NCBI GenBank assembly: GCA_964016885.1
Contig: OZ024741.1
Location: forward strand, 169,446,001-169,510,000
Length of the DNA stretch: 64,000 nt
Origin: Eledone cirrhosa
Taxonomy: Eukaryota
Reading direction: 5' to 3'
Positions within the stretch are counted from its first letter, which is position 1, and every line of letters begins with the position of its first letter. Below the pieces are notes generated by a model. It was not told the DNA's origin, searched no databases, and was given only the letters and a program-made list of their open reading frames with translations. Positions 1 through 27,648 of this stretch are shown in pieces. Both the position numbers and the translations under genes were made by a program.

Positions 1-445
1 TATGGTGGACACGTTTGAAAGGGCTGAAGACGAGCACTTACCTCTTCGGTGATGCCCTGATTAACTTTTTCAAATTTCATTTGAAAAGGAAAATCAGGGT
101 AGAGAGGGAAGTGCTCTCTTCCCAGCATTTTGTTGAAAGATGGGTGAGAGAAGCAAGTATGGCCCGAATGAATGGGCCTTCTCTGAGTATGTGTCTGTAA
201 ATTAAAGGTGGAAAACTGGGAGAGGGCACTTGCCTTGGTGGTCAGGGCCACTGTGTTCTTTTAATGGGCTTTCTCCACAAATGTCCCTCGGAAGTCTCCC
301 CCCTATTGGGGAATTTTTCTTTGTTATTTTATTTCATCCTCTGTTTTCTTTTACAGGCAGAAATGCCCATTTGTACCGTCCTGTATTGTTCTGTACTGTC
401 CTTAATGTCTACTTTATGTAAACCCTTGTGGTTAATAAAGAAAAC
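1..445 (+). mobile_element. 3' end (ORF2 C-terminus + 3' UTR) of an upstream copy of the Tx1-like non-LTR retrotransposon
   Basis: 1-200 aligns to 8729-8928 (10 substitutions counted by eye) and ends in TAA. The 3' UTR matches 8929-9190 with indels and ends GTTAATAAAGAAAAC, followed by (ATT)n and the same U1 upstream flank. Confidence 0.93.
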
Positions 446-933
446 ATTATTATTATTATTATTATTATTATCATTATTATTATAATAAAATTAACCGTGA
501 GAGACACTAAAGACACACACACAAATCTCAATTTGCATTATTCATCGATCTGCTGGAAACAACGTTGATATTTGTCTCAACTAACAGCCTCTCTCCTGGA
601 AGAAGGAAAAAACAGTGGTAAATACTTTTCTGCAAGTTTGTGATAGTAGTTAATGCTAAAAGCAAATGTTGAATTATTTCCCTTGACTAATACAAGATAG
701 TAGATTTGAAGGCGTAAGTAAAGATAGTTTAGTTGTTAAATTGATAAAGTTTGTATAAAGAAGAATAACTTTGAAAGTAAAGAGTATTGAATAAGTGTAT
801 AAATAAAATAATTTGCAAGTTGTATTGTTTTTTGTATTGTGGAATTAAATTTTCAGTAGTTGTTGATGGTATAAAGTCAGTAGATCTTTTGTAAGTATAA
901 TGTTATATGAAGAAAGTGATTATTGTATCTAGC

Positions 934-1096
934 ATACTTACCTGGCACAGGGGTTAACCATGATCCGCTAGGTGGTTCTCCCAGAGTGAGGCTCTTCCAT
1001 TGCACTGCGGTTGGGTTGACCTTTGCGATCGCCCCAAATGTGGGCGACTCGGGTGCGCTATTTCTAAGTGTGGGGTCTGCGTTCGCGCTCACCCCG
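934..1096 (+). ncRNA. RNU1: U1 spliceosomal snRNA (variant), copy 1
   Basis: Starts ATACTTACCTGG. It has the CCATGATC..GGTGG stem-loop I, the ATTGCAC U1A loop, CCCCAAATGTGGG stem-loop III and a 3' GGGGTCTGCGTTCGCGC..CCCC stem-loop IV. Length ~163 nt. Confidence 0.95.
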
Positions 1097-1103
1097 TAAA
1101 ATA

Positions 1104-1117
1104 ATCAAAAAGACAGA
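1104..1117 (+). terminator. snRNA 3'-box-like element downstream of U1 copy 1
   Basis: ATCAAAAAGACAGA ~8 nt after the U1 3' end resembles the AARRYAGA part of the metazoan snRNA 3' box; conserved in copy 2 (9862-9875). Confidence 0.55.
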
Positions 1118-2297
1118 ATTTTTACTATTATTAAATTATAATTATCTTTCTCTATTCTTTCACACAATCCACTTTACTCATTCTCTCATACAACCTAACT
1201 TTTCAGATTTATTTCTTTTACAAACTCCCTCATACAACCTTTTCCTATTCATGCAATCCTCACCTAACTCTTCTCTGCACTCTCAACTCTTGCCCACGCC
1301 GGCATATCATACACTAACACACCATTTCACCGGCTCTTGCCTACCTTTTCCACCACACATGCATCGTCCCTTCTATTTTCAATTAACAACAACTACCTTC
1401 ATTCTATTTCAATTCAGCCGCAATCACTCTTACCTTTCACACTTCTCTTCCAACATACACCCAACCGTCTGTCGTATATCTGAGTAATTAACCTCATAGA
1501 AACAACACTTAAATTTACCTCCTCTCACACATAACCTACATTATATGGAGAAAGATATCTGCCATTTTCACTCTTAGTATATCTTTCATCATACCACTGG
1601 CCAGCTAAATCATAACTTCCATCTTCCGACGGAGAAGACGCTCCTATCAGAAGAAATCATCAGGCTAGATCCAGAAACGATCTTATCTTATTTGTCGTCT
1701 AGCCTTCGGTCTCACGCCAGTTGGATTTACCCGTATTATCTCTCTAGTCATTCTTTTCTTATACATTCTAAACACACCTTCCTACTACCAGAGCGGTGAT
1801 CTTCCGATTCAGAAAATTCGCTGCTCTACCTGTAGCCACTCCCTCATCTCCAAGCTACACATCCAATCGACCAAGCTTATTCCAAACGCTTGTAAATCTA
1901 CATTTACAAATCAATACAACAAACAATTTACTTCAGCGTACACACACAGACATATATTACTAGCAAATCACTTATATATGGAACTTGTGAGCATGTGATA
2001 TCTCTAACAGGTCGCATCTTGAACTCAATCAAACAATCTAGCCTATACTAATATGGAAAGAGGACGTGCAATGATGATATGGAGTTTTAGGCTTTTCTTA
2101 AGCACAGAGATTGTTTTAGTGTCACTTGGATTTAAAATTTAATTATCTTTATTATCCACTTCTCAGTAGTGAGAACTTGATAAATATTTATTACAACAGT
2201 TAAACCAACTTCATTAAAGTATTATGTTGCTGTAGGTGTGTGTATAACATGCAACTAGATAAACTCTGATATAGTAGATAGATTCATGTGAAATATC

Positions 2298-3127
2298 TAT
2301 ATACAAGTGCACCACCATGTATTTTGGGAGTAAAAACCCAGCGTCCACATACTCCCTCCACAGCACTAATATCAAGAAGTCTTCTTGTGAACGTGACCTG
2401 GACATTGCGGTCAGCAGCGATTTGCGTTGGACGAAGCACGTCTCTAAAATTGTCAAGAGGGCCGAGGGTGTCTTAACATCACTCAGCAAGACCTTTGTCA
2501 GCCGCTCTCCTGCTATCTATTTAAGGCTGTACATGGCTATGGTGCGGCCACACTTAGAATTTGCATCACCAGTCTGGGACCCCTAGCTTGCTCAGAACAT
2601 TGACCGCCTGGAAACTGTTCAGAGACGTGCAACCAAGCGAATACCCTCCATCAGGCATCTACCGTACTCTGAGCGCCTTGCTTCCCTGGGCATGGATACA
2701 TTGAATCTCCGACGCCTGGCAACTGACTTGGTAAACACCGACAAAATTGTTAACCATCTTGCCAACAACAACCCTGAGTAGCTTTTTGATTTCCATGTGT
2801 CTAACACACGTGGGCATGCCCACAAAGTCTGAAAACAGTACAGTTCCCATGACTTTCGGAAACATTTTTTCACGCTCAGAGTTGCTGAAGAATGTAACAA
2901 ACTACCTGCATCGGTTGTTAGCTGTCAAGACACTGCATCCTTTAAGGCCTCCATGCTTCCCGAGATTCGCTAACACTACACCTAATGTCGCCCCCTCCCT
3001 CCCTCATACACACATGTATATCATGACTCATACACTATTCACTTCTCTGACTTTTGGTTTTTATTCTATGTACTATACATGCACCTTTGACGAGTTGTAG
3101 TGCACCTGAGCACTTTACACAATAATT

Positions 3128-3159
<32 letters not shown>
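2298..3159 (+). mobile_element. 5'-truncated, degenerate CR1/L2-group LINE 3' fragment with (ATT)n tail, part of the U1 repeat unit
   Basis: Translates to a CR1-type post-RT region (ERDLDIAVSSDLRW..LYMAMVRPHLEFASPVWDP*..LETVQRRATK..YSERL..TRGH..FRKHFF) with in-frame stops. Ends in (ATT)10 at 3130-3159. Confidence 0.85.
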
Positions 3160-3374
3160 GAATGCCATGGTTGACGGAGGCTCGGCTCTGTAAGGTATAG
3201 TAATTTTTAACCGTTAAAACAATTGTAAATTGTTTAAAACTTGAACCAAATTGTTGATAAAGACACCCTCCTCCTCGTGAGAGGGGTCTTTCTGTCCGTT
3301 ATTTGGCCCTTCGGGGTTAAATAACCAGTTATTGGGGTTTTGTACCCAAAATTTCATTTTAAACAAAAAACAAC

Positions 3375-5473
3375 ATGGCTACGAAAAAGAAATTTCATAC
3401 GTCATTCCCACTCATTCCGTCTTCTTCTTCCTCAATCATCACTACAGCAGAGAGAAGATTGTCTCTCTCCCTCCCTTCTTTAAATGTGTCTCTCTCCCTC
3501 CCTTCTCTTTCGCAAGTGACGAAAGAAAAGAAAAGTCTCGTGCAAAGCGTGCAAGGTTTCTCCACGACGACGACGACAGCGACGAAACAGGTGTGCGGGA
3601 AATACGAAAACCCAGTTCATTCGTCTGACGTCAGGAATAATAGCAGTAGCAGCCGTAATAACAACAGCAACAGTGACAATGAAAACAACAGTAGCAGCCG
3701 CAACAGCATCACCAGCAGCATAAACAACAACAGCATTAGCAGCAGCAACACCAACAACAACCACAGCAACAGCGGCGGAGGCAGTAGTCGTAGTACCTGC
3801 AGCAACAACAAAAGTACCAGCAGCTCTGACGACAACAACAACAGCAGAGAAAAACCAATCTCATTTGCAGGTATTGCGAAAAACTTGGAAACAATCCTCA
3901 TAACAAATGAGGAATTAGAGGAAGCGAAGAAGATGGTGACAAAGAACGGACACAGAGCAATCTGCAAGGCAGCGAAAAATTTTTTCGAAACCCAAGAGCA
4001 CTGTACGGTCACGTACCGTACAGTAAGTACAAAATCCCGTAGGGTGGAAAGAGCCACAGAGGCCCAAATACAAAAAGCCTTGGGGTCTGTGTGGCAGAGG
4101 AAAACGCACATCACCCGAGGCAAAAAAATACGCCACCGTAGACGTACTTTTTGCCACACCCCAGGAGGCAAAGGCCCAATCAGTAGTGACCCTAAGGAGC
4201 GAGGAAATGGTGTTGGTGCCCTCCTACTGCGGGCAAAAAATTGTGAGGGTCAAACTGACCCACGTCCCCCCCGGAATGACCCCTTCTTGGCTGGCCGCGT
4301 CTGTCCTCGTCGGAATCGAGGACAAAACAACTGTACTGCAAGTACAGAAAAAAGTAAGAGAAGATTGGGTCGGCTCCTCCATTGAGATGCTAATCCAAAC
4401 CAACCAGGAGTGCATCGAAGCTATCCCGGATGTGATAGACTTCGATAACGGCACTCAACTGCCCATAAGTGTTGAGGGCAAACGCCCGAAATGCTTTCGC
4501 TGTGGATCGAAGACTCACCTCAGGGCCTTCTGCAACGAGAAGACCCTGAGAAAGGAGAAACCCCCCCCTCCTTCCGAATCCGGCTCCACGGCTACCAGCA
4601 ACAGGACAAGCGGCAACCAGGAACGATAGGTCCGTGGCACCCATACCCACTCCACGGAAATCAAAGACAGCAGCAGCAGTGGAAATATTAACAACAACAA
4701 CAGCAATACCAAATGCAGCTGCAACAGAGACTCCAGTGCAAACATCACCAACAACAACAAGTGAAAGAGTGGAGATGGTACCCCTCCCCGACCTTACAGA
4801 ATCAGACATGGAGTGTGAGGTGGGAGAGGGATGGCAAAAGGTCGCAAGAAGGCACAAACGCAGAAGCAGCGCATCGTCGCCTTTGAAAAGGGAGGAAAGA
4901 AATGAGAAAAGGGTAAAGTCTACTGCAAAGAGACCCACAGCAGCAACACCACCAACACCATCACCACCCACACCAGCACCACCATCACCACCGGCGACAA
5001 CCCCACCGCCAACAACACCTTCAACACCACCACCACAAGCACCAACATCGCAAACACAACAACAAAACACACACACCCAGCAACAACGACAAGAAAATAG
5101 CAGAACCACACCCCACCCCCAGAAAAACAAATGCACGGCAATAAACACACACAACAAGAAACTAATGACTTACATAATTGAACACACAGACATTTCACAA
5201 CAGGACTACATAATACCAGCACCAATCAAAACGCCAACTAACATAAGACTGCTAAAAATAGCACAGAAACAATACACAAACATTAAAACGAAATTCCCCA
5301 ACGCAGTTGGTGATTTCAGGGACCTAGGAGGAACCATCAATCGAAGAGTATATTCAGACATTCTCTTAGAAGAGCCGACGACCAGCCGAAGGGAGGATTC
5401 AACGGTCCCTTCACCAGACGATCAAGTGAAAAGGGATGTAAAAACCATCCCTCCTCTACCAAAAGTACGGTAA
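3375..5473 (+). CDS. ORF1 gag-like nucleic-acid-binding protein with CCHC zinc knuckle, split by two +1 frameshifts (~698 aa if repaired)
   Basis: ATG at 3375. The frame changes at the A7 run (~4122-4128) into a frame containing CFRCGSKTHLRAFC (CX2CX4HX4C). It changes again at the C8 run (4561-4568) into a Pro/Thr-rich frame ending TAA at 5473. Confidence 0.78.
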
Positions 5474-5508
5474 GTGGTCTTTCCCATCTTTTCCACTCTA
5501 TTTTAAAC

Positions 5509-8500
5509 ATGACCTCACTCAGAATAGGCAGCATAAATGCGCGTGGCTTGGGGTCGTCATGGAAGCAGGGTCACCTGCTCAACGACCTCAGGTCACTAAA
5601 CATAGATGTAGTGGCCATCAGCGAGACCAGAATCTCTGAAGCACGGGCCTTCGCACCGATCTTCGGCGGCTACGATGTGTACGCATCTCCCAGCCGTCCT
5701 GGATCGGGTGGAGGAGTTGCTGTGCTTTTTCGGAGAGGTTTGGATCTCGCCATACGGGCCATCTTCCTGGACCCAGAGGGTAAGCTGGTGGTGCTGGACG
5801 TGACCAGCGGAGACGGGCAAGCTTTCAGGCTAGTGGCCGTCTATGCCCCGACAGGAGCAGGGCGGCCTGATTTCTTCAGGCGTCTGGAGACCTTTCTTGG
5901 AACGTCCCGCTCTTTAGTGTTAGTGGGCGACTGGAACGGGATCTTAGATGCACGCTGGGACTGTGTGGGATTAGCGGATAGGGGTGGAGGGTGCAAGAGC
6001 CTCACCAACCTGCTCAGGCGTTTTGAACTGTCTGACAGGTACCGATTGGATTTCCCGAATGTGCCAATGTGGACTTGGACAAACCGCATAGGGTCATCCA
6101 GATCATATCTAGATAGAGTATTTTGTAGGGAAATAGATAGGTCTAGCATAGGCTGTCCACAATTCAAGATAGTCAGCTACACGGACCACAAATTCGTGAC
6201 CTGTGTGCTTGACTTAGATAGGCTTCATAGACGAGGACCCGGCTACTGGAAGCTAAACGCGTCCTTACCAGCGCGCAAGGCCTACAGAGACCGGATTAGC
6301 GAACTAGTTAAGCGGGCGTTGACGGGGGCCATCGTCAACAACAAGTGGTGGTTTGCTCTGAAAAGAGCGATTAGAATAGAATCGATTAGGTTTAGTAAGG
6401 CTTTAGCAATAGAGAAAAATAGAGCAGAGGGAGAACTAGTTAGAAAATTAGACGAGGCGCTTAGCAAAGGCATTGCGACCGACGTGCTTGCGGCGAAATT
6501 GGCCCTTGACCAATTCTTCAATGCAAAGCACGAAGGCTGCGTTGTCAGAGCTAGGGTGCGTGCTCTCAGACACGAGGGGACGAAAGCCGTTCAATGGGCC
6601 CGAGTGGCGGAGGCGCGTCGTGGCAACAAAGCCACGATCCGGTCTTTGGTGGACCACGACGGGCGCATGCTACCCGATCCCGGGCAAATGTGTGAAGCTT
6701 TTCAGCGACACTTCGCTCAGCTGTTCGGGGGCAGCGGGGGGCCGGGTAGAGGGATGGACTTTAGTGTCTACCTCGACGGACTGCCGCGGCTCTCGGCCAC
6801 TGAGGCGAAGTGTTGCGAAAAGCCGATAACAGCCGCTGAAGTAAGGGAGGCAATGACTGGCTGCACAAGGGGTAAATCGCCTGGTTTGGATGGTCTGCCC
6901 TATGAACTTTACGTACAGATGCCAGACTTGTTCGGAGGCCTCTTAGCGGACGTCTACTGCAACTGGCAACAGAACGGGAGAATTCCCAGTTCTGTGAGCC
7001 GAGGAGCGGTGGCACTGCTGAGAAAGGATCCGAACAAGGGGGATAACATAGACAATTTCCGGCCCATAACTCTGCTAAACACAGAGTTTAAGATTTTGGC
7101 CAAGGTGCTAGCAAAGAGGTTGGCGCTTGTCGTTGGTGGTCTAGTGGGAGAGGCGCAGACATGCGCCATTCCCGACAGATCCATCCACGACAACCTCCAC
7201 CTCATGCGATACATCGTAGAGAGGGTAGCTAGGGAACCTGGCACGGGTGGGTCCTTGATCAATTTAGATCAGTCGAAAGCTTTCGATAGGGTCGACCATC
7301 GTTACCTAGCGGCAGTCCTGAGGGCGGCTGGCTTTGGGCCCGTCTTCAGAGGCTGGATCGCTGCCATGCACAGCGACATCTGCTCTGTGGTGAGAGTGAA
7401 CGGTCACCTGTCGGAACCGTTCAACATCATGCGCTCGGTCCGCCAAGGATGTCCCCTCTCGTCCCTCTTGTACGTATTGACTCTCGAGCCATTACTGCAC
7501 AAACTGGAGACGTTGAGGGGAGTCCCGCGCGAACTAGGATGCGGAAGATCCGTGTCAGCATATGCCGACGATGTCACCGTAGTGGTGTCGAACGCCAAAC
7601 ACATCGAGGCGATCGGCACTACACTAAGAGAATACGAAGCGGTGACAGGAGCAATGATCAACCAGGAAAAGTCAGTGGGCCTGCAGCTCGGCACCTGGAG
7701 AGGCAGGTCCATGCCGTCCAACAGCGTCGTCGGGCGCTGGACGGACGGACCGGTTAAATTGCTAGGGGTCTGGTTCGGTCCGGACCTCCAGACGGACAAA
7801 AACTGGGACGAGGTGACGAGCAGGGTGGCTTCTCTCACCCAGAAATGGGCGGAGAGGAAGCTATCCCTGAAAGGTCGAGCGGAGGTGGCTAACGCGTACA
7901 TCGCGTCTGTCATCTGCTACCGCCTAACCGTCGTACCTTGTCCTAAGCCTCGCCTGACTGCGCTGGAGCGTTTGCTCTTTCGCTTTTTGTGGAAGGGACG
8001 TGCTCCGATGGTCAGGCGGTCCATCTGTTGTCAACACCCGCTACGTGGAGGGCTGGGCATGCCGTGGCTGATGATGCGCAGGCACGCGCTCAGGCTACGA
8101 CATCTCCACCTCTTCCTCGACGGTGATCAGGTGTGGTCGCCGTTTGCTAGACGCGTTTTTCCCCAGCTCGTTTCCTTGACGGAGCTGCAGTCCTGGGTCA
8201 AGCGAAGACCGAGAGGGAGCGCCTGGAGACTGGAATGTCTTCAGGCGCTCACAGCCCTCGACCAATCGGGCAATGTGATCGGTGGAAACTCCACCTCGGC
8301 GTTCTATAGAGGATTAGTGGAGGGGAAGAGCGACGACGTACTTGGGGAAACTCTAGGCGTCGACGAAAATCAACTAGCCAATCTCTTCGGAAGAACTTTC
8401 GGGCCAGGGCCTATGGACAACTTCCAGAAATCTCTGGCCTGGCAGTGCTACCGAGGAGCCTTGCCAGTTCGGGATAAACTCTACAGGCATGGAGGTGCCG

Positions 8501-8928
8501 TCAGCCGGGCATGTCCGAGATGCGCGCAGGGCGACGAAACCGTCCTGCACGCACTCGTCCAGTGTCCGAAAATTGCTGACTTGTGGGTTTATGTCGAACA
8601 CCTGCTGTCGCGTTTAGGACGGATCCAGCTATCATCTGAGTCTATCGTGAGGATTGCCCCGCCCTCCTCCTTTAGCCGGGAAGGGCAGGCAGTTTTTATC
8701 TGTCTGGTGGCCATGGCGAAAGAGATAGTATGGTGGACACGTTTGAAAGGGCTGAAGACGAGCACTTACCTCTTCGGTGATGCTCTGATTGACTTTTTCA
8801 AATTTCATTTGAAAAGGAAAATCAGAGTAGAGAAGGAAGTGCTCTCTTCCCAGCATTTTGTTGAAAGATGGGTGAGAGAAGCAAGAATGGCCCGAGTGAA
8901 TGGGCCGACTCTGAGTATATATCTGTAA
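5509..8928 (+). CDS. ORF2: APE endonuclease + reverse transcriptase + C-terminal CCHC zinc finger (1139 aa, intact)
   Basis: APE motifs SINARGL, AISET, VAVYAP, LVGDWN, SYLDRV, YTDH. Linker GPGYWKLN. RT motifs KSPGLDGL, NFRPITLLN, LDQSKAFDRV, RQGCPLS, YADD. C-terminal CPRC..ETVLHALVQC. Confidence 0.97.
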   Translation: MTSLRIGSINARGLGSSWKQGHLLNDLRSLNIDVVAISETRISEARAFAPIFGGYDVYASPSRPGSGGGVAVLFRRGLDLAIRAIFLDPEGKLVVLDVTSGDGQAFRLVAVYAPTGAGRPDFFRRLETFLGTSRSLVLVGDWNGILDARWDCVGLADRGGGCKSLTNLLRRFELSDRYRLDFPNVPMWTWTNRIGSSRSYLDRVFCREIDRSSIGCPQFKIVSYTDHKFVTCVLDLDRLHRRGPGYWKLNASLPARKAYRDRISELVKRALTGAIVNNKWWFALKRAIRIESIRFSKALAIEKNRAEGELVRKLDEALSKGIATDVLAAKLALDQFFNAKHEGCVVRARVRALRHEGTKAVQWARVAEARRGNKATIRSLVDHDGRMLPDPGQMCEAFQRHFAQLFGGSGGPGRGMDFSVYLDGLPRLSATEAKCCEKPITAAEVREAMTGCTRGKSPGLDGLPYELYVQMPDLFGGLLADVYCNWQQNGRIPSSVSRGAVALLRKDPNKGDNIDNFRPITLLNTEFKILAKVLAKRLALVVGGLVGEAQTCAIPDRSIHDNLHLMRYIVERVAREPGTGGSLINLDQSKAFDRVDHRYLAAVLRAAGFGPVFRGWIAAMHSDICSVVRVNGHLSEPFNIMRSVRQGCPLSSLLYVLTLEPLLHKLETLRGVPRELGCGRSVSAYADDVTVVVSNAKHIEAIGTTLREYEAVTGAMINQEKSVGLQLGTWRGRSMPSNSVVGRWTDGPVKLLGVWFGPDLQTDKNWDEVTSRVASLTQKWAERKLSLKGRAEVANAYIASVICYRLTVVPCPKPRLTALERLLFRFLWKGRAPMVRRSICCQHPLRGGLGMPWLMMRRHALRLRHLHLFLDGDQVWSPFARRVFPQLVSLTELQSWVKRRPRGSAWRLECLQALTALDQSGNVIGGNSTSAFYRGLVEGKSDDVLGETLGVDENQLANLFGRTFGPGPMDNFQKSLAWQCYRGALPVRDKLYRHGGAVSRACPRCAQGDETVLHALVQCPKIADLWVYVEHLLSRLGRIQLSSESIVRIAPPSSFSREGQAVFICLVAMAKEIVWWTRLKGLKTSTYLFGDALIDFFKFHLKRKIRVEKEVLSSQHFVERWVREARMARVNGPTLSIYL

Positions 8929-9188
8929 ACTAAAGGTGGAAAACTGGGAGAGGGCACTTGCCTTGGTGGTCAGGGTCATTGTGGCTTTTTACTGGGCTTT
9001 CTCCACAAATGTCCCTCCGAAGTCTCCCCCCTATTGGGGAATTTTTCATTGTTATTTTCATTGTTATTTTTGTTACATCCTCTGTTTTTGTTTTTTTACA
9101 CGCAGAAATGCCCATTTGTACCGTCCTGCATTGTCCTGCACTGTCCTTAATGTCTACTTTATGTAAACCCTTGTGGTTAATAAAGAAA

Positions 9189-9246
<58 letters not shown>

Positions 9247-9691
9247 AATTAACCGTGAGAGACACTAAAGACACACACACAAATCTCAATTTGCGTTATT
9301 CATCGATCTGCTGGAAATAACGTTGATATTTGTCTCAACTAACAGCCTCTCTCCTGGAAGAAGGAAAAAACGGTGATAAATACTTTTCTGCAAGTTTGTG
9401 TTAGTAGTTAATGCTAACACCAAATGTTGAATTATTTCCCTTGATTAATACAAGATAGTAGATTTGAAGGCGTAAGTAAAGATAGTTTAGTTGTTAAATT
9501 GATAAAGTTTGTATAAAGAAGAATAACTTTGAAAGTAAAGAGTAGTGAATAAGTGGGTAAATAAAATAATTTGCAAGTTGTATTGTTTTTTGTATTGTGG
9601 CATTAAATTTTCAGTAGTTGTTGATGGTATAAAGTCAGTAGATCTTTCGTAAGTATAATGTTATATGAAGAAAGTGATTATGGTGTCTAGC

Positions 9692-9854
9692 ATACTTACC
9701 TGGCACAGGGGTTAACCATGATCCGCTAGGTGGTTCTCCCAGAGTGAGGCTCTTCCATTGCACTGCGGTTGGGTTGACCTTTGCGATCGCCCCAAATGTG
9801 GGCGACTCGGGTGCGCTATTTCTAAGTGTGGGGTCTGCGTTCGCGCTCACCCTG
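9692..9854 (+). ncRNA. RNU1: U1 spliceosomal snRNA (variant), copy 2
   Basis: Identical to 934-1096 except ACCCTG vs ACCCCG at the 3' end; homologous flanks; offset 8758 bp. Confidence 0.95.
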
Positions 9855-10382
9855 TAAAATAATCAAAAAGACAGACTTTTTACCATTAGTAAATTATGAT
9901 TATCTTTCTCTATTCTTTCACACAATCCACTTTACCCATTCTCTCATACAACCTAACTTTTCAGATTTATTTCTTTTACAAACTCCCTCATACAACCTTT
10001 TCCTATTCATGCAATCCTCACCTAACTCTTCTCTGCACTCTCAACTCTTGCCCACGCCGGCATATCATACACTAACACACCATTTCACCGGCTCTTGCCT
10101 ACCTTTTCCACCACACATGCATCGTCCCTTCTATTTTCAATTAACAACAACTACCTTCATTCTATTTCAATTCAGCCGCAATCACTCTTACCTTTCACAC
10201 TTCTCTTCCAACATACACCCAACCGTCTATCGTATATCTGAGTAATTAACCTCATAGAAACAACACTTAAATTTACCTCCTCTCACACATAACCTACATT
10301 ATATGGAGAAAGATATCTGCCATTTTCACTCTTAGTATATCTTCCATCATACCACTGGCCAGCTAAATCATAACTTCCATCA

Positions 10383-10634
10383 TAACAAACTACCTACATC
10401 GGTTGTTAGCTGTCGAGACACTGCATCCTTTAAGGCCTCCATGCTTCCCGAGATTCGCCAACACTACACCTAATGTCGCCCCCTCCCTCCCTCATACACA
10501 CATGTATATCATGACTCATACACTATTCACTTCCCTGACATTTGTGTTTTATTCTATGTACTATGCACCTTTGACGAGTTGTAGTGCACCTGAGCACTTT
10601 ACACAATAATTTCATTATTATTATTATTATTATT
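10383..10634 (+). mobile_element. Short 3' remnant of the CR1-like LINE with (ATT)7 tail in the deleted last U1 unit
   Basis: Matches ~2895-3159; joined to spacer sequence equivalent to ~1623 by a ~1.27 kb deletion. Confidence 0.85.
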
Positions 10635-10659
10635 ATATAAATTAACCGTGAGAGACACT

Positions 10660-13600
10660 GAATTTCAGCAAGATATCTCCGTAAAATCAATAGTTGTGGC
10701 TGTGGAACCAAACCGTGTTAAACGTCAACAAAGTCGGTGAGCGTAAGTTTGTTTACATTGAACTCGTGGTGGGATCGATCTGTAATTACTGGTACATGTG
10801 CAGACACACATTGCTTGTGTGTGGTGTGATTTTCAAAAAAAACTGCCCATGCTAAATGAGGCAGCTGAAGTCCGGCGGCGAATGGTGTGCTTCGAAGAAA
10901 ACGAATCCAAAAATGACGATTAGCCGGCGGATTTACCTTTTCAATCGCGGGCCGGCCGCCCGTGGTCGGATCGATCTGTAATTACTGGTACATGTGCAGA
11001 CACTCATTGGCTATGTGTGGCGTGAATTTCAGCAAGATATCTCCGTAAAATCAATAGTTGTGGCTGTGGAACCAAACCGTGTTAAACGTCAACAAAGTCC
11101 GCCGGCGAATGGTGTGCTTCGAAGAAAACGAATCCAAAAATGACGATTAGCCGGCGGATTTACCTTTTCAATCGCGGGCCGGCCGCCCGTGGTCGGATCG
11201 ATCTGTAATTACTGGTACATGTGCAGACACTCATTGGCTATGTGTGGCGTGAATTTCAGCAAGATATCTCCGTAAAATCAATAGTTGTGGCTGTGGAACC
11301 AAACCGTGTTAAACGTCAACAAAGTCCGCCGGCGAATGGTGTGCTTCGAAGAAAACGAATCCAAAAATGACGATTAGCCGGCGGATTTACCTTTTCAATC
11401 GCGGGCCGGCCGCCCGTGGTCGGATCGATCTGTAATTACTGGTACATGTGCAGACACTCATTGGCTATGTGTGGCGTGAATTTCAGCAAGATATCTCCGT
11501 AAAATCAATAGTTGTGGCTGTGGAACCAAACGGTGTTAAACGTCAACAAAGTCCGCCGGCGAATGGTGTGCTTCGAAGAAAACGAATCCAAAAATGACGA
11601 TTAGCCGGCGGATTTACCTTTTCAATCGCGGGCCGGCCGCCCGTGGTCGGATCGATCTGTAATTACTGGTACATGTGCAGACACTCATTGGCTATGTGTG
11701 GCGTGAATTTCAGCAAGATATCTCCGTAAAATCAATAGTTGTGGCTGTGGAACCAAACCGTGTTAAACGTCAACAAAGTCCGCCGGCGAATGGTGTGCTT
11801 CGAAGAAAACGAATCCAAAAATGACGATTAGCCGGCGGATTTACCTTTTCAATCGCGGGCCGGCCGCCCGTGGTCGGATCGATCTGTAATTACTGGTACA
11901 TGTGCAGACACTCATTGGCTATGTGTGGCGTGAATTTCAGCAAGATATCTCCGTAAAATCAATAGTTGTGGCTGTGGAACCAAACGGTGTTAAACGTCAA
12001 CAAAGTCCGCCGGCGAATGGTGTGCTTCGAAGAAAACGAATCCAAAAATGACGATTAGCCGGCGGATTTACCTTTTCAATCGCGGGCCGGCCGCCCGTGG
12101 TCGGATCGATCTGTAATTACTGGTACTTGTGCAGACACTCATTGGCTATGTGTGGCGTGAATTTCAGCAAGATATCTCCGTAAAATCAATAGTTGTGGCT
12201 GTGGAACCAAACCGTGTTAAACGTCAACAAAGTCCGCCCGCGAATGGTGTGCTTCGAAGAAAACGAATCCAAAAATGACGATTAGCCGGCGGATTTACCT
12301 TTTCAATCGCGGGCCGGCCGCCCGTGGTCGGATCGATCTGTAATTACTGGTACATGTGCAGACACTCATTGGCTATGTGTGGCGTGAATTTCAGCAAGAT
12401 ATCTCCGTAAAATCAATAGTTGTGGCTGTGGAACCAAACCGTGTTAAACGTCAACAAAGTCCGCCGGCGAATGGTGTGCTTCGAAGAAAACGAATCCAAA
12501 AATGACGATTAGCCGGCGGATTTACCTTTTCAATCGCGGGCCGGCCGCCCGTGGTCGGATCGATCTGTAATTACTGGTACATGTGCAGACACTCATTGGC
12601 TATGTGTGGCGTGAATTTCAGCAAGATATCTCCGTAAAATCAATAGTTGTGGCTGTGGAACCAAACCGTGTTAAACGTCAACAAAGTCCGCCGGCGAATG
12701 GTGTGCTTCGAAGAAAACGAATCCAAAAATGACGATTAGCCGGCGGATTTACCTTTTCAATCGCGGGCCGGCCGCCCGTGGTCGGATCGATCTGTAATTA
12801 CTGGTACATGTGCAGACACTCATTGGCTATGTGTGGCGTGAATTTCAGCAAGATATCTCCGTAAAATCAATAGTTGTGGCTGTGGAACCAAACCGTGTTA
12901 AACGTCAACAAAGTCCGCCGGCGAATGGTGTGCTTCGAAGAAAACGAATCCAAAAATGACGATTAGCCGGCGGATTTACCTTTTCAATCGCGGGCCGGCC
13001 GCCCGTGGTCGGATCGATCTGTAATTACTGGTACATGTGCAGACACTCATTGGCTATGTGTGGCGTGAATTTCAGCAAGATATCTCCGTAAAATCAATAG
13101 TTGTGGCTGTGGAACCAAACCGTGTTAAACGTCAACAAAGTCCGCCGGCGAATGGTGTGCTTCGAAGAAAACGAATCCAAAAATGACGATTAGCCGGCGG
13201 ATTTACCTTTTCAATCGCGGGCCGGCCGCCCGTGGTCGGATCGATCTGTAATTACTGGTACATGTGCAGACACTCATTGGCTATGTGTGGCGTGAATTTC
13301 AGCAAGATATCTCCGTAAAATCAATAGTTGTGGCTGTGGAACCAAACGGTGTTAAACGTCAACAAAGTCCGCCGGCGAATGGTGTGCTTCGAAGAAAACG
13401 AATCCAAAAATGACGATTAGCCGGCGGATTTACCTTTTCAATCGCGGGCCGGCCGCCCGTGGTCGGATCGATCTGTAATTACTGGTACTTGTGCAGACAC
13501 TCATTGGCTATGTGTGGCGTGAATTTCAGCAAGATATCTCCGTAAAATCAATAGTTGTGGCTGTGGAACCAAACCGTGTTAAACGTCAACAAAGTCCGCC

Positions 13601-16600
13601 CGCGAATGGTGTGCTTCGAAGAAAACGAATCCAAAAATGACGATTAGCCGGCGGATTTACCTTTTCAATCGCGGGCCGGCCGCCCGTGGTCGGATCGATC
13701 TGTAATTACTGGTACATGTGCAGACACTCATTGGCTATGTGTGGCGTGAATTTCAGCAAGATATCTCCGTAAAATCAATAGTTGTGGCTGTGGAACCAAA
13801 CGGTGTTAAACGTCAACAAAGTCCGCCGGCGAATGGTGTGCTTCGAAGAAAACGAATCCAAAAATGACGATTAGCCGGCGGATTTACCTTTTCAATCGCG
13901 GGCCGGCCGCCCGTGGTCGGATCGATCTGTAATTACTGGTACATGTGCAGACACTCATTGGCTATGTGAGGCGTGAATTTCAGCAAGATATCTCCGTAAA
14001 ATCAATAGTTATGGCTGTGGAACCAAACAGTGTTAAACGTCAACAAAGTCCGCCGGCGAATGGTGTGCTTCGAAGAAAACGAATCCAAAAATGACGATTA
14101 GCCGGCGGATTTACCTTTTCAATCACGGGCCGGCCGCCCGTGGTCGGATCGATCTGTAATTACTGGTACATGTGCAGACACTCATTGGCTATGTGTGGCG
14201 TGAATTTCAGCAAGATATCTCCGTAAAATCAATAGTTGTGGCTGTGGAACCAAACCGTGTTAAACGTCAACAAAGTCCGCCGGCGAATGGTGTGCTTCGA
14301 AGAAAACGAATCCAAAAATGACGATTAGCCGGCGGATTTACCTTTTCAATCGCGGGCCGGCCGCCCGTGGTCGGATCGATCTGTAATTACTGGTACATGT
14401 GCAGACACTCATTGGCTATGTGTGGCGTGAATTTCAGCAAGATATCTCCGTAAAATCAATAGTTGTGGCTGTGGAACCAAACCGTGTTAAACGTCAACAA
14501 AGTCCGCCCGCGAATGGTGTGCTTCGAAGAAAACGAATCCAAAAATGACGATTAGCCGGCGGATTTACCTTTTCAATCGCGGGCCGGCCGCCCGTGGTCG
14601 GATCGATCTGTAATTACTGGTACATGTGCAGACACTCATTGGCTATGTGTGGCGTGAATTTCAGCAAGATATCTCCGTAAAATCAATAGTTGTGGCTGTG
14701 GAACCAAACCGTGTTAAACGTCAACAAAGTCCGCCCGCGAATGGTGTGCTTCGAAGAAAACGAATCCAAAAATGACGATTAGCCGGCGGATTTACCTTTT
14801 CAATCGCGGGCCGGCCGCCCGTGGTCGGATCGATCTGTAATTACTGGTACATGTGCAGACACTCATTGGCTATGTGTGGCGTGAATTTCAGCAAGATATC
14901 TCCGTAAAATCAATAGTTGTGGCTGTGGAACCAAACCGTGTTAAACGTCAACAAAGTCCGCCCGCGAATGGTGTGCTTCGAAGAAAACGAATCCAAAAAT
15001 GACGATTAGCCGGCGGATTTACCTTTTCAATCGCGGGCCGGCCGCCCGTGGTCGGATCGATCTGTAATTACTGGTACATGTGCAGACACTCATTGGCTAT
15101 GTGTGGCGTGAATTTCAGCAAGATATCTCCGTAAAATCAATAGTTGTGGCTGTGGAACCAAACGGTGTTAAACGTCAACAAAGTCCGCCGGCGAATGGTG
15201 TGCTTCGAAGAAAACGAATCCAAAAATGACGATTAGCCGGCGGATTTACCTTTTCAATCGCGGGCCGGCCGCCCGTGGTCGGATCGATCTGTAATTACTT
15301 GTACATGTGCAGACACTCATTGGCTATGTGTGGCGTGAATTTCAGCAAGATATCTCCGTAAAATCAATAGTTGTGGCTGTGGAACCAAACCGTGTTAAAC
15401 GTCAACAAAGTCCGCCCGCGAATGGTGTGCTTCGAAGAAAACGAATCCAAAAATGACGATTAGCCGGCGGATTTACCTTTTCAATCGCGGGCCGGCCGCC
15501 CGTGGTCGGATCGATCTGTAATTACTGGTACATGTGCAGACACTCATTGGCTATGTGTGGCGTGAATTTCAGCAAGATATCTCCGTAAAATCAATAGTTG
15601 TGGCTGTGGAACCAAACCGTGTTAAACGTCAACAAAGTCCGCCCGCGAATGGTGTGCTTCGAAGAAAACGAATCCAAAAATGACGATTAGCCGGCGGATT
15701 TACCTTTTCAATCGCGGGCCGGCCGCCCGTGGTCGGATCGATCTGTAATTACTGGTACATGTGCAGACACTCATTGGCTATGTGAGGCGTGAATTTCAGC
15801 AAGATATCTCCGTAAAATCAATAGTTGTGGCTGTGGAACCAAACCGTGTTAAACGTCAACAAAGTCCGCCGGCGAATGGTGTGCTTCGAAGAAAACGAAT
15901 CCAAAAATGACGATTAGCCGGCGGATTTACCTTTTCAATCGCGGGCCGGCCGCCCGTGGTCGGATCGATCTGTAATTACTGGTACATGTGCAGACACTCA
16001 TTGGCTATGTGTGGCGTGAATTTCAGCAAGATATCTCCGTAAAATCAATAGTTGTGGCTGTGGAACCAAACCGTGTTAAACGTCAACAAAGTCCGCCCGC
16101 GAATGGTGTGCTTCGAAGAAAACGAATCCAAAAATGACGATTAGCCGGCGGATTTACCTTTTCAATCGCGGGCCGGCCGCCCGTGGTCGGATCGATCTGT
16201 AATTACTGGTACATGTGCAGACACTCATTGGCTATGTGTGGCGTGAATTTCAGCAAGATATCTCCGTAAAATCAATAGTTGTGGCTGTGGAACCAAACCG
16301 TGTTAAACGTCAACAAAGTCCGCCCGCGAATGGTGTGCTTCGAAGAAAACGAATCCAAAAATGACGATTAGCCGGCGGATTTACCTTTTCAATCGCGGGC
16401 CGGCCGCCCGTGGTCGGATCGATCTGTAATTACTTGTACATGTGCAGACACTCATTGGCTATGTGTGGCGTGAATTTCAGCAAGATATCTCCGTAAAATC
16501 AATAGTTGTGGCTGTGGAACCAAACGGTGTTAAACGTCAACAAAGTCCGCCCGCGAATGGTGTGCTTCGAAGAAAACGAATCCAAAAATGACGATTAGCC

Positions 16601-19600
16601 GGCGGATTTACCTTTTCAATCGCGGGCCGGCCGCCCGTGGTCGGATCGATCTGTAATTACTGGTACATGTGCAGACACTCATTGGCTATGTGTGGCGTGA
16701 ATTTCAGCAAGATATCTCCGTAAAATCAATAGTTGTGGCTGTGGAACCAAACCGTGTTAAACGTCAACAAAGTCCGCCGGCGAATGGTGTGCTTCAAGAA
16801 AACGAATCCAAAAATGTAGATTAGCCGGCGGATTTACCTTTTCAATCGCGGGCCGGCCGCCCGTGGTCGGATCGATCTGTAATTACTGGTACATGTGCAG
16901 ACACTCATTGGCTATGTGTGGCGTGAATTTCAGCAAGATATCTCCGTAAAATCAATAGTTGTGGCTGTGGAACCAAACGGTGTTAAACGTCAACAAAGTC
17001 CGCCGGCGAATGGTGTGCTTCGAAGAAAACGAATCCAAAAATGACGATTAGCCGGCGGATTTACCTTTTCAATCGCGGGCCGGCCGCCCGTGGTCGGATC
17101 GATCTGTAATTACTGGTACATGTGCAGACACTCATTGGCTATGTGTGGCGTGAATTTCAGCAAGATATCTCCGTAAAATCAATAGTTGTGGCTGTGGAAC
17201 CAAACCGTGTTAAACGTCAACAAAGTCCGCCCGCGAATGGTGTGCTTCGAAGAAAACGAATCCAAAAATGACGATTAGCCGGCGGATTTACCTTTTCAAT
17301 CGCGGGCCGGCCGCCCGTGGTCGGATCGATCTGTAATTACTGGTACATGTGCAGACACTCATTGGCTATGTGTGGCGTGAATTTCAGCAAGATATCTCCG
17401 TAAAATCAATAGTTGTGGCTGTGGAACCAAACCGTGTTAAACGTCAACAAAGTCCGCCCGCGAATGGTGTGCTTCGAAGAAAACGAATCCAAAAATGACG
17501 ATTAGCCGGCGGATTTACCTTTTCAATCGCGGGCCGGCCGCCCGTGGCGGATCGATCTGTAATTACTGGTACATGTGCAGACACTCATTGGCTATGTGTG
17601 GCGTGAATTTCAGCAAGATATCTCCGTAAAATCAATAGTTGTGGCTGTGGAACCAAACCGTGTTAAACGTCAACAAAGTCCGCCGGCGAATGGTGTGCTT
17701 CGAAGAAAACGAATCCAAAATTGACGATTAGCCGGCGGATTTACCTTTTCAATCGCGGGCCGGCCGCCCGTGGTCGGATCGATCTGTAATTACTGGTACA
17801 TGTGCAGACACTCATTGGCTATGTGTGGCGTGAATTTCAGCAAGATATCTCCGTAAAATCAATAGTTGTGGCTGTGGAACCAAACCGTGTTAAACGTCAA
17901 CAAAGTCCGCCCGGCGAATGGTGTGCTTCGAAGAAAACGAATCCAAAAATGACGATTAGCCGGCGGATTTACCTTTTCAATCGCGGGCCGGCCGCCCGTG
18001 GTCGGATCGATCTGTAATTACTGGTACATGTGCAGACACTCATTGGCTATGTGTGGCGTGAATTTCAGCAAGATATCTCCGTAAAATCAATAGTTGTGGC
18101 TGTGGAACCAAACCGTGTTAAACGTCAACAAAGTCCGCCGCGAATGGTGTGCTTCGAAGAAAACGAATCCAAAAATGACGATTAGCCGGCGGATTTACCT
18201 TTTCAATCGCGGGCCGGCCGCCCGTGGTCGGATCGATCTGTAATTACTGGTACATGTGCAGACACTCATTGGCTATGTGTGGCGTGAATTTCAGCAAGAT
18301 ATCTCCGTAAAATCAATAGTTGTGGCTGTGGAACCAAACCGTGTTAAACGTCAACAAAGTCCGCCCGGCGAATGGTGTGCTTCGAAGAAAACGAATCCAA
18401 AAATGACGATTAGCCGGCGGATTTACCTTTTCAATCGCGGGCCGGCCGCCCGTGGTCGGATCGATCTGTAATTACTGGTACATGTGCAGACACTCATTGG
18501 CTATGTGTGGCGTGAATTTCAGCAAGATATCTCCGTAAAATCAATAGTTGTGGCTGTGGAACCAAACCGTGTTAAACGTCAACAAAGTCCGCCCGCGAAT
18601 GGTGTGCTTCGAAGAAAACGAATCCAAAAATGACGATTAGCCGGCGGATTTACCTTTTCAATCGCGGGCCGGCCGCCCGTGGTCGGATCGATCTGTAATT
18701 ACTGGTACATGTGCAGACACTCATTGGCTATGTGTGGCGTGAATTTCAGCAAGATATCTCCGTAAAATCAATAGTTGTGGCTGTGGAACCAAACCGTGTT
18801 AAACGTCAACAAAGTCCGCCCGCGAATGGTGTGCTTCGAAGAAAACGAATCCAAAATGACGATTAGCCGGCGGATTTACCTTTTCAATCGCGGGCCGGCC
18901 GCCCGTGGTCGGATCGATCTGTAATTACTGGTACATGTGCAGACACTCATTGGCTATGTGTGGCGTGAATTTCAGCAAGATATCTCCGTAAAATCAATAG
19001 TTGTGGCTGTGGAACCAAACCGGTGTTAAACGTCAACAAAGTCCGCCGGCGAATGGTGTGCTTCGAAGAAAACGAATCCAAAAATGACGATTAGCCGGCG
19101 GATTTACCTTTTCAATCGCGGGCCGGCCGCCGTGGTCGGATCGATCTGTAATTACTGGTACATGTGCAGACACTCATTGGCTATGTGTGGCGTGAATTTC
19201 AGCAAGATATCTCCGTAAAATCAATAGTTGTGGCTGTGGAACCAAACCGTGTTAAACGTCAACAAAGTCCGCCCGCGAATGGTGTGCTTCGAAGAAAACG
19301 AATCCAAAAATGACGATTAGCCGGCGGATTTACCTTTTCAATCGCGGGCCGGCCGCCCGTGGTCGGATCGATCTGTAATTACTGGTACATGTGCAGACAC
19401 TCATTGGCTATGTGTGGCGTGAATTTCAGCAAGATATCTCCGTAAAATCAATAGTTGTGGCTGTGGAACCAAACCGTGTTAAACGTCAACAAAGTCCGCC
19501 CGCGAATGGTGTGCTTCGAAGAAAACGAATCCAAAAATGACGATTAGCCGGCGGATTTACCTTTTCAATCGCGGGCCGGCCGCCCGTGGTCGGATCGATC

Positions 19601-22600
19601 TGTAATTACTGGTACATGTGCAGACACTCATTGGCTATGTGTGGCGTGAATTTCAGCAAGATATCTCCGTAAAATCAATAGTTGTGGCTGTGGAACCAAA
19701 CCGTGTTAAACGTCAACAAAGTCCGCCCGGCGAATGGTGTGCTTCGAAGAAAACGAATCCAAAAATGACGATTAGCCGGCGGATTTACCTTTTCAATCGC
19801 GGGCCGGCCGCCCGTGGTCGGATCGATCTGTAATTACTTGTACATGTGCAGACACTCATTGGCTATGTGTGGCGTGAATTTCAGCAAGATATCTCCGTAA
19901 AATCAATAGTTGTGGCTGTGGAACCAAACCGTGTTAAACGTCAACAAAGTCCGCCCGCGAATGGTGTGCTTCGAAGAAAACGAATCCAAAAATGACGATT
20001 AGCGGCGGATTTACCTTTTCAATCGCGGGCCGGCCGCCCGTGGTCGGATCGATCTGTAATTACTGGTACATGTGCAGACACTCATTGGCTATGTGTGGCG
20101 TGAATTTCAGCAAGATATCTCCGTAAAATCAATAGTTGTGGCTGTGGAACCAAACCGTGTTAAACGTCAACAAAGTCCGCCCGCGAATGGTGTGCTTCGA
20201 AGAAAACGAATCCAAAAATGACGATTAGCCGGCGGATTTACCTTTTCAATCGCGGGCCGGCCGCCCGTGGTCGGATCGATCTGTAATTACTGGTACATGT
20301 GCAGACACTCATTGGCTATGTGTGGCGTGAATTTCAGCAAGATATCTCCGTAAAATCAATAGTTGTGGCTGTGGAACCAAACCGTGTTAAACGTCAACAA
20401 AGTCCGCCGGCGAATGGTGTGCTTCGAAGAAAACGAATCCAAAAATGACGATTAGCCGGCGGATTTACCTTTTCAATCGCGGGCCGGCCGCCCGTGGTCG
20501 GATCGATCTGTAATTACTGGTACATGTGCAGACACTCATTGGCTATGTGTGGCGTGAATTTCAGCAAGATATCTCCGTAAAATCAATAGTTGTGGCTGTG
20601 GAACCAAACCGTGTTAAACGTCAACAAAGTCCGCCGCGAATGGTGTGCTTCGAAGAAAACGAATCCAAAAATGACGATTAGCCGGCGGATTTACCTTTTC
20701 AATCGCGGGCCGGCCGCCCGTGGTCGGATCGATCTGTAATTACTGGTACATGTGCAGACACTCATTGGCTATGTGTGGCGTGAATTTCAGCAAGATATCT
20801 CCGTAAAATCAATAGTTGTGGCTGTGGAACCAAACCGTGTTAAACGTCAACAAAGTCCGCCGGCGAATGGTGTGCTTCGAAGAAAACGAATCCAAAAAAT
20901 GACGATTAGCCGGCGGATTTACCTTTTCAATCGCGGGCCGGCCGCCCGTGGTCGGATCGATCTGTAATTACTGGTACATGTGCAGACACTCATTGGCTAT
21001 GTGTGGCGTGAATTTCAGCAAGATATCTCCGTAAAATCAATAGTTGTGGCTGTGGAACCAAACCGTGTTAAACGTCAACAAAGTCCGCCGGCGAATGGTG
21101 TGCTTCGAAGAAAACGAATCCAAAAATGACGATTAGCCGGCGGATTTACCTTTTCAATCGCGGGCGGCCGCCCGTGGTCGGATCGATCTGTAATTACTGG
21201 TACATGTGCAGACACTCATTGGCTATGTGTGGCGTGAATTTCAGCAAGATATCTCCGTAAAATCAATAGTTGTGGCTGTGGAACCAAACCGTGTTAAACG
21301 TCAACAAAGTCCGCCCGCGAATGGTGTGCTTCGAAGAAAACGAATCCAAAAATGACGATTAGCCGGCGGATTTACCTTTTCAATCGCGGGCCGGCCGCCC
21401 GTGGTCGGATCGATCTGTAATTACTTGTACATGTGCAGACACTCATTGGCTATGTGTGGCGTGAATTTCAGCAAGATATCTCCGTAAAATCAATAGTTGT
21501 GGCTGTGGAACCAAACCGTGTTAAACGTCAACAAAGTCCGCCGGCGAATGGTGTGCTTCGAAGAAAACGAATCCAAAAATGACGATTAGCCGGCGGATTT
21601 ACCTTTTCAATCGCGGGCCGGCCGCCCGTGGTCGGATCGATCTGTAATTACTGGTACATGTGCAGACACTCATTGGCTATGTGTGGCGTGAATTTCAGCA
21701 AGATATCTCCGTAAAATCAATAGTTGTGGCTGTGGAACCAAACCGTGTTAAACGTCAAACAAAGTCCGCCGGCGAATGGTGTGCTTCGAAGAAAACGAAT
21801 CCAAAAATGACGATTAGCCGGCGGATTTACCTTTTCAATCGCGGGCCGGCCGCCCGTGGTCGGATCGATCTGTAATTACTGGTACATGTGCAGACACTCA
21901 TTGGCTATGTGTGGCGTGAATTTCAGCAAGATATCTCCGTAAAATCAATAGTTGTGGCTGTGGAACCAAACCGTGTTAAACGTCAACAAAGTCCGCCGGC
22001 GAATGGTGTGGCTTCGAAGAAAACGAATCCAAAAATGACGATTAGCCGGCGGATTTACCTTTTCAATCGCGGGCCGGCCGCCCGTGGTCGGATCGATCTG
22101 TAATTACTGGTACATGTGCAGACACTCATTGGCTATGTGTGGCGTGAATTTCAGCAAGATATCTCCGTAAAATCAATAGTTGTGGCTGTGGAACCAAACC
22201 GTGTTAAACGTCAACAAAGTCCGCCCGCGAATGGTGTGCTTCGAAGAAAACGAATCCAAAAATGACGATTAGCCGGCGGATTTACCTTTTCAATCGCGGG
22301 CCGGCCGCCCGTGGTCGGATCGATCTGTAATTACTGGTACATGTGCAGACACTCATTGCTATGTGTGGCGTGAATTTCAGCAAGATATCTCCGTAAAATC
22401 AATAGTTGTGGCTGTGGAACCAAACGGTGTTAAACGTCAACAAAGTCCGCCGGCGAATGGTGTGCTTCGAAGAAAACGAATCCAAAAATGACGATTAGCC
22501 GGCGGATTTACCTTTTCAATCGCGGGCCGGCCGCCCGTGGTCGGATCGATCTGTAATTACTGGTACATGTGCAGACACTCATTGGCTATGTGTGGCGTGA

Positions 22601-25600: not shown

Positions 25601-25843
25601 GGCTGTGGAACCAAACGTGTTAAACGTCAACAAAGTCCGCCCGCGAATGGTGTGCTTCGAAGAAAACGAATCCCAAAAATGACGATTAGCCGGCGGAATT
25701 TACCTTTTCAATCGCGGGGCCGGCCGCCCGTGGTCGGATCGATCTGTAATTCCTTGTACATGTGCAGACACTCATTTGGCTATGTGTGGCGTGAATTTCA
25801 GCAAGAATCTCCGTAAAATCAATAGTTGTGGCTGTGGAACCAA
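10660..25843. repeat. 227-bp satellite DNA array (~67 monomers, runs into the gap)
   Basis: Motif GAATTTCAGCAAGATATCTCC recurs every 227 bp (e.g. 11251 and 13521 are 10 units apart). Monomers are nearly identical; the first one is divergent. Confidence 0.98.
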
Positions 25844-26043
25844 NNNNNNNNNNNNNNNNNNNNNNNNNNNNNNNNNNNNNNNNNNNNNNNNNNNNNNNNN
25901 NNNNNNNNNNNNNNNNNNNNNNNNNNNNNNNNNNNNNNNNNNNNNNNNNNNNNNNNNNNNNNNNNNNNNNNNNNNNNNNNNNNNNNNNNNNNNNNNNNNN
26001 NNNNNNNNNNNNNNNNNNNNNNNNNNNNNNNNNNNNNNNNNNN
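25844..26043. other. Assembly gap (200 N)
   Basis: Run of N. Confidence 1.
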
Positions 26044-26992: not shown

Positions 26993-27038
<46 letters not shown>

Positions 27039-27466: not shown

Positions 27467-27497
<31 letters not shown>

Positions 27498-27500
27498 CAC

Positions 27501-27563
<63 letters not shown>

Positions 27564-27616
27564 CATATATATATATACATATATATATACATATATATAT
27601 ATACATATATATATAC

Positions 27617-27647
<31 letters not shown>

Positions 27648-27648
27648 C

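Follow-up and report, generated by a model that had tools for sequence, protein, structure and literature searches.

Several retrotransposons of the Tx1 clade insert at defined sequences, and microsatellite-specific Tx1 elements are already established as a kind. In the portions of PMC4494074 and PMC3812793 available to us, Kibi (TC), Koshi (TTC) and crocodilian Tx1 elements (TTCC, TTTC) are described as such. Likewise, in the available text of the respective papers, the U2 small nuclear RNA (snRNA) gene is targeted both by the Tx1 element Keno (PMC4494074) and by Utopia, which carries a restriction-like endonuclease (RLE; PMC4640811), and Dada-U1 DNA transposons insert into U1 genes (PMC8869645). 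Here we examine a 64,000-nt stretch of the Eledone cirrhosa genome (OZ024741.1; the whole stretch is termed the window, and coordinates below refer to it), in which a complete Tx1-like long interspersed nuclear element (LINE) lies within a cluster of U1 snRNA gene units. An earlier sequence-only reading had proposed that this element is specific for the (ATT)n spacer site of a tandem U1 array. The element is microsatellite-specific, and U1 specificity is refuted. With high confidence, we regard it as a young, high-copy member of the L1 group, likely of the Tx1 clade, that inserts into (ATT)n throughout the genome. The presence of three independent copies in the U1 cluster is likely due solely to the (ATT)n tail that an older LINE left in each unit.

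The main text of PMC13282606 reports 13 recently active L1-Tx1 families with 421 insertions in Octopus vulgaris, as well as active Dong-R4 elements, and the window family may already be contained in that repeat library. The words ‘target’ and ‘snRNA’ do not occur in that main text, its supplement and library lying outside this scope. L1-Tx1 elements are described as common in molluscs in the available parts of PMC10294476 and PMC8967140, and Dong elements as residing in TAA microsatellites of Bombyx, Anopheles and Biomphalaria in those of PMC3812793. The literature searched, which excluded Repbase, Dfam and most subscription papers, yielded neither an ATT- or TATC-specific Tx1 element nor any account of target specificity in a cephalopod; Fig. 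3 and the supplement of PMC4494074, a list of Tx1 targets, may name such an element. As Tx1 target repeats, (ATT)n and (TATC)n are apparently unreported.

Insertion into ATT runs across the genome

Copies were counted as exact-pattern matches in the genome, using different words for different ends of the element. A 26-mer at the 3′ end yields 6,580 matches, and its reversed control yields none. Two alternative 5′ ends are joined to the same second open reading frame (ORF2). The type-A end is present in 1,604 copies and is immediately preceded by (ATT)3 in 1,564 of them (97.5%), and the same holds for 2,156 of 2,314 type-B ends (93.2%). For microsatellite-specific retrotransposons, Kojima’s rule as given in the available text of PMC4494074 asks that more than 20% of flanks carry the repeat. 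The A and B heads together amount to about 60% of the 3′ ends, which would be a high full-length share for a LINE, roughly estimated given that exact words of different ends are compared.

The orientation of insertion is fixed, with ATT on the sense strand of the element. Full-length copies begin with G directly after an ATT, and at the 3′ end AATAAA is followed by a few bases and then by ATT. At least three ATT units precede all 30 sampled A heads and all 20 sampled B heads, in runs of 3 to 27 units, with unrelated sequence beyond the run. This outlying sequence is the tail of another Tx1 copy at 19 of the 50 heads and a SINE-like (short interspersed nuclear element-like) tail at 7, and in 3 of 30 A-head flanks a (TTC)n stretch precedes the ATT run. 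Two loci (L103 and L133) show what may be a third type of head, again placed after ATT runs. The genome contains 31,790 (ATT)7 runs whose preceding base is A, C or G, and roughly 10-21% of long ATT runs adjoin this lineage, a crude figure in that many runs are element tails and others are uncounted.

The regular ATT-head junction could also arise if the 5′ ATT belonged to the element itself and were copied from a read-through transcript, in which case insertion would not be sequence-specific. The 19 heads that come after another Tx1 tail are what co-transcribed tandem copies could produce. However, the remaining 31 flanks differ beyond ATT runs of very unequal length, many of them being ATT tails of unrelated elements, and the empty site in the U1 unit already has (ATT)7-11. 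We consider this explanation very unlikely.

U1 units and their three insertions

A 20-bp sequence that flanks the ATT run in the U1 unit has 35 copies in the genome, all of which were examined. Only three of these sites are filled, and all three belong to the diverged cluster of the window, which has six flank sites; the third filled site is located 20 kb upstream. The other 29 sites, which belong to two arrays of uniform 2,674-bp units (C2 near 180.98 Mb and contig C1128), are all empty, compared with three of six filled in the cluster (Fisher p 0.003). The ATT run is interrupted by CTT in 10 of these 29 main-array units (C2:180973099-180994509; C1128). Five further U1 genes (C2:27.92-27.95 Mb and C11:40.09 Mb) have no A or B element in the 45 kb fetched around them. 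Four of the five are in mixed orientation, and their spacers are diverged.

Occupancy of U1 units is unremarkable, because 3 of 35 sites are filled compared with 10-21% of long ATT runs genome-wide. Against this rough background the binomial p is 0.09-1.0 for 3/35 and 0.001-0.04 for 0/29, the latter being low. The shared insertion position at U1 units is therefore no more than a microsatellite-specific element would give. Furthermore, a family specific for an snRNA array would be expected to have more than 20% of its copies beside the RNA gene unit, and here 3 of at least 6,580 copies do. The U1 unit is matched by none of 60 sampled ends (30 3′ ends and 30 A heads). Copies are mostly found away from U1 units, and the ATT runs that hold them are of diverse provenance. 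By the refuting conditions that the sequence-only reading had set for itself, the proposed array specificity is not supported, and the family is specific for the microsatellite rather than for U1. The independent filling of three of six cluster sites speaks for specificity for the U1 spacer, yet with main-array sites empty and the copies elsewhere so numerous, we find this idea hardly credible. The earlier view that insertion into the spacer (ATT)n leaves the U1 genes intact is correct.

Several observations weigh against an account based on the microsatellite alone. Compared with the rough background, 3/6 filled sites in the local cluster is at most mildly high (p 0.02-0.11), and because half of the cluster sites are filled, a local preference for the U1 cluster may exist. 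The main arrays end at a gap or occupy a 52-kb contig, and they are possibly collapsed and could hide filled units. The sampled loci were the first ones on contig C1 and not a random draw. Among 5′-truncated copies (13 rows read by eye, one of which, L010, was excluded as having no true junction), a clear ATT run is present at the 5′ junction in only 4 of 12. The other junctions show (TTC)n in two cases, (ACT)n, (AAT)n and a mixed ATC/ATT run in one case each, and only ATTAT-like words in three. Also, at least three ATT units are present at only 22 of 30 sampled 3′ ends, all 30 having at least one. Because truncated 5′ junctions are mixed and some 3′ ends have fewer than three units, the ATT specificity is strong but not strict.

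The three insertions in the U1 cluster are independent of one another. Amplification of a single insertion together with the array, which the sequence-only reading had named as an objection to itself, would account for the two A copies sharing a 5′ junction, (ATT)10 followed by the head, and being 98.9% identical. However, the ATT-head junction is general among type-A copies. Across about 1,430 bp of 3′ sequence, five copies on C1 show 0, 1, 2, 4 and 6 differences from the window copy, compared with 26 in the A copy located 20 kb upstream and 66 in the B copy, and the copy without any difference sits on another chromosome. The window copy is thus nearer to dispersed copies than to its neighbour, and the third copy has another 5′ untranslated region (UTR) and ORF1. 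Amplification of one insertion, which we judge extremely improbable, is refuted unless a duplicated insertion was later overwritten by gene conversion from dispersed copies.

The layout of the locus is given in the table. An identical 20-bp flank follows both ATT runs (446-483 and 9191-9241), each time 445 bp upstream of U1. Both filled units had been thought to hold one element family, but the copy ending at position 445, read upstream beyond the window, is of type B. Its ORF2 and 3′ part, including the 3′ UTR, are 94.6% identical to those of the type-A copy, and its ORF1 is only about 50% identical to that of type A in the core. The switch point between the two types coincides with the end of ORF1 in three B copies (L031, which is the copy ending at 445, L114 and L117). 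The 5′ and 3′ junctions of the complete copy do reconstitute the empty site at about 10601-10659. Two filled U1 sites and one empty one had been described. The filled sites stand, but the empty site (10614) heads no U1 gene, its unit being ended at 10659 by a 227-bp satellite. Empty U1 sites hold (ATT)7-11, and the ATT units at filled sites sum to 17, about 19 and 27.

Table. Features of the window, with positions in nucleotides from its first letter
Feature	Position	Strand	Remarks
3′ end of full-length type-B copy (end of ORF2 and 3′ UTR)	1..445	+	Copy starts 5,417 bp upstream of the window, behind (ATT)7
(ATT)n with one ATC: tail and 3′ part of target, first filled site	446..483	+	
20-bp U1-unit flank	489..508	+	445 bp upstream of U1; 35 exact genome copies
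U1 snRNA gene	934..1097	+	Identical to a main-array copy
3′ fragment of older decayed LINE, fixed in U1 unit	2301..3129	+	CR1/jockey-group-like by automatic label
(ATT)10: old-LINE tail and 5′ part of target	3130..3159	+	
Complete type-A element, 6,031 bp	3160..9190	+	
Type-A ORF1	3375..5473	+	Split here by two one-base frameshifts
Type-A ORF2, 1,139 aa	5509..8928	+	Open; APE endonuclease (PF03372), reverse transcriptase (PF00078, YADD), zf-RVT (PF13966)
Type-A 3′ UTR	8929..9190	+	AATAAA at 9179-9184; ATT tail directly after UTR
(ATT)17: tail and 3′ part of target	9191..9241	+	
U1 snRNA gene	9692..9855	+	One difference from main-array copy
Old-LINE end, empty (ATT)7 site (10614-10634) and flank	10383..10659	+	Unit lacks about 1.27 kb; no downstream U1
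227-bp satellite, about 66 copies, 98% matches	10660..25843		Cuts off U1 cluster; assembly gap 25844-26043

The target in the U1 unit is, as had been suggested, the (ATT)n tail of an older LINE that became fixed there. Dispersed copies of this fragment are 84-89% identical and likewise end in (ATT)n, an old-LINE tail is present at 7 of 30 sampled ATT runs (by eye), and at one locus (L170) such a tail has received a type-B insertion with no U1 unit present. At its start, the cluster has five units that are older and shorter and contain neither the LINE fragment nor the ATT site. Units of the local cluster are about 98.4% identical to the main-array unit, and main-array units are 99.7-99.9% identical. 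The order of events is thus as follows: the U1 unit came first, the old LINE was then fixed in the arrays, and three recent insertions entered its tail in the diverged cluster.

Coding capacity, the (TATC)n sister family and a proposed mechanism

ORF1 is intact at 698 aa in the type-A copy 20 kb upstream of the window copy. The two frameshifts of the window ORF1 are located in homopolymer runs near 4122 and 4562, and these may be mutations or assembly errors. Both ORFs are open in 4 of 20 fetched type-A copies. ORF1 consists of a low-complexity N-terminus, a core, one CX2CX4HX4C knuckle and a Pro/Thr-rich region. Its core resembles ZCCHC3-type RNA-binding/CCHC proteins, with atlas look-alikes scoring 0.91-0.93 (a lead only). 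A Pfam search gave nothing above cut-off for ORF1, for the old-LINE pieces or for the C-terminus of the tail-to-tail neighbour described below. The three ORF2 domains, PF03372, PF00078 and PF13966, are all above cut-off. The best PDB match of ORF2 is human L1 ORF2p (E 1.6e-52), R2 proteins following at E 1e-21 or weaker. The alignment with L1 ORF2p extends across 850 residues, and the catalytic motifs of both the apurinic/apyrimidinic endonuclease-like (APE) domain and the reverse transcriptase (RT) line up. The element thus has the features of the L1 group: an ORF2 with APE, RT and zinc-binding domains, a separate ORF1 with a zinc knuckle, AATAAA with a simple-repeat tail, and 5′-truncated copies.

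The sequence-only reading had called this a Tx1-like APE element. An APE-RT retrotransposon of the non-long-terminal-repeat class it is, and membership in the Tx1 clade is likely. Specifically, its RT groups with four vertebrate proteins automatically labelled YTX2/TX1 (Shimodaira-Hasegawa-like approximate likelihood ratio test, SH-aLRT, 95), and the octopod rows stand apart from plant and Dictyostelium rows. This was a quick tree of 37 RT rows with similarity-based labels and without curated Tx1L, Keno, Kibi, Koshi, Dewa or vertebrate L1 sequences, which tempers the assignment. Among named relatives, the one nearest to ORF2 comes from Argonauta hians, with 74% identity across 41% of the query. 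Two metagenome scans looked for the targets of relatives; one found none, and in the other the best 30 relatives were about 25-37% identical to ORF2 and had no clear flanks. Thirteen public sequencing runs, among those listed, contain at least half of the ORF2 words, and no RNA run is among them. In four public runs compared with the element, its body was seen and its flanks were not. An Rfam search to E 1 found no 5′ ribozyme and no match besides U1, except a chance match to mir-203.

The stop codon of ORF1 sits inside a splice-donor-like word, GTAAGT at 5470 in the window (5470-5522) and GTAGGT in the TATC-associated sister family described below. In both families the first AG downstream, at 53 or 51 nt, would fuse ORF1 to ORF2 in frame, and in the sister family the two ORFs lie in one frame divided by a single TAG. 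The genome holds no A or B copy without this putative intron, and a donor-like word upstream of ORF2 is present, at any position, in just 4 of 23 distant metagenome relatives. Splicing between ORF1 and ORF2 is at best a weak lead.

A sister Tx1-like family was found upstream of the U1 cluster (L034, minus strand, with the ORF2 start near L034:3228; C2 ~169.41 Mb), and 546 of its 5′ ends were counted. At least three TATC units are present within 40 nt in 22 of 30 sampled 5′ ends, and (ATT)3 in none of the 30. Of the 12 copies fetched, 8 terminate in TATC units and 6 (within L260-L301) have a full ORF2. The sister-family copy L299, at a non-repeat site, is surrounded by a 20-bp target-site duplication (by eye). 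The two ORF2 proteins are 66% identical (61% in the endonuclease and 74% in the RT), and four differences fall in the stretch aligned with what we take to be the position of the L1 hairpin loop.

The general scheme of target-primed reverse transcription suggests how such junctions might form. We infer that the first cut, made by the APE endonuclease, would fall on the (AAT)n strand. The 3′ end released in this way would base-pair with the short AUU tail of the element RNA, and the RNA would then be copied. Cutting of the second strand after an ATT would yield the fixed ATT|G 5′ junction. Because each insertion leaves ATT runs on both sides, the element would make its own new targets and build head-to-tail nests. 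The uniform main U1 arrays would presumably lose insertions by unit turnover, with the diverged cluster retaining them.

Targeting might instead be directed by the tail, with loose nicking at T/A and success wherever the AUU tail pairs with the nicked strand; this would leave the verdict on U1 unchanged. Where the element entered (ACT)n, a minisatellite ATTAT word or a site outside any repeat, no more than one ATT is retained at the 3′ end, the tail of the sister family matches its own TATC target after the same AATAAAGAAAT end, and the available text of PMC1950540 (Repanas 2007) holds that factors besides nicking shape L1 integration. However, an in-frame ATT stands immediately before the element at 93-97.5% of full-length 5′ junctions, a regularity that pairing at the 3′ end does not by itself impose, and the same text reports that hairpin-loop grafts change specificity. 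Tail-directed targeting is possible but, in our view, rather unlikely.

A broader picture, offered only tentatively from the sequences compared, would be a radiation of octopod Tx1-like LINEs that partition microsatellites. An (ATT)n lineage would share its repeat, on the opposite strand, with a restriction-endonuclease LINE, and a sister lineage would occupy (TATC)n. The target would have switched through a few hairpin-loop residues together with the RNA tail, and modules of 5′ UTR and ORF1 would have been swapped onto one ORF2. If true, the two families, both natural and active, could be compared to show how the target of an APE endonuclease changes, and such elements would rank among the main sources of the long ATT runs of this genome.

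The Tx1 copy has a tail-to-tail neighbour at 11 of 30 sampled loci (L002, L003, L020 and others): on the other side of the shared ATT/AAT run sits a second element, whose C-terminus is of the PD-(D/E)xK type. Its weak match to R2 proteins (E 0.004) is consistent with a neighbour that is probably Dong/R4-like. Elsewhere in the window, an open frame on the minus strand (35352-36974), an exon of a SOCS-family gene, carries an SH2 domain and a SOCS box. Fragments of other RT-encoding elements at 32184-32741 and 59335-61379 are presumably RTE-like, and long TA-rich arrays occupy 26044-30473.

Comparison with described systems

A U1-specific retrotransposon would have been surprising; the outcome is a microsatellite-specific Tx1-like family. 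This family is sufficiently active that different chromosomes carry nearly the same copy and that both ORFs are still open in some copies. With the ATT/TATC pair, it becomes possible to test which of the two, endonuclease loop or RNA tail, determines where an APE retrotransposon inserts. The family also suggests how nested clusters of retroelements can form in octopus genomes, and provides a small case in which uniform snRNA arrays stay clean and a diverged cluster accumulates insertions.

The L1-Tx1 families of Octopus vulgaris, as presented in the main text cited above, belong to the same repeat class and were recently active in an octopus. Dewa, a Tx1 element of tRNA spacers, resembles the window element, as do Keno, Utopia and Dada-U1, in being found at small-RNA gene repeats. 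In contrast, those elements are specific for the RNA gene or array, whereas the window element has only a handful of its thousands of copies there and leaves the main arrays empty. Dong elements, which belong to the R4 clade and have a restriction-like endonuclease, occupy the same microsatellite; unlike the window element, they use an unrelated endonuclease and lie in the opposite orientation on the repeat, so that the target is convergent. The closest likeness is to Kibi and Koshi of teleosts and to the crocodilian Tx1 elements, which in the text available are also Tx1-like elements of the APE type with two ORFs and strong microsatellite specificity. Unlike Kibi and Koshi, however, the window element does not target (TC)n or (TTC)n, the latter adjoining just 2 of 12 truncated copies, but resides in (ATT)n, with a sister family in (TATC)n, and does so in a mollusc in thousands of copies.

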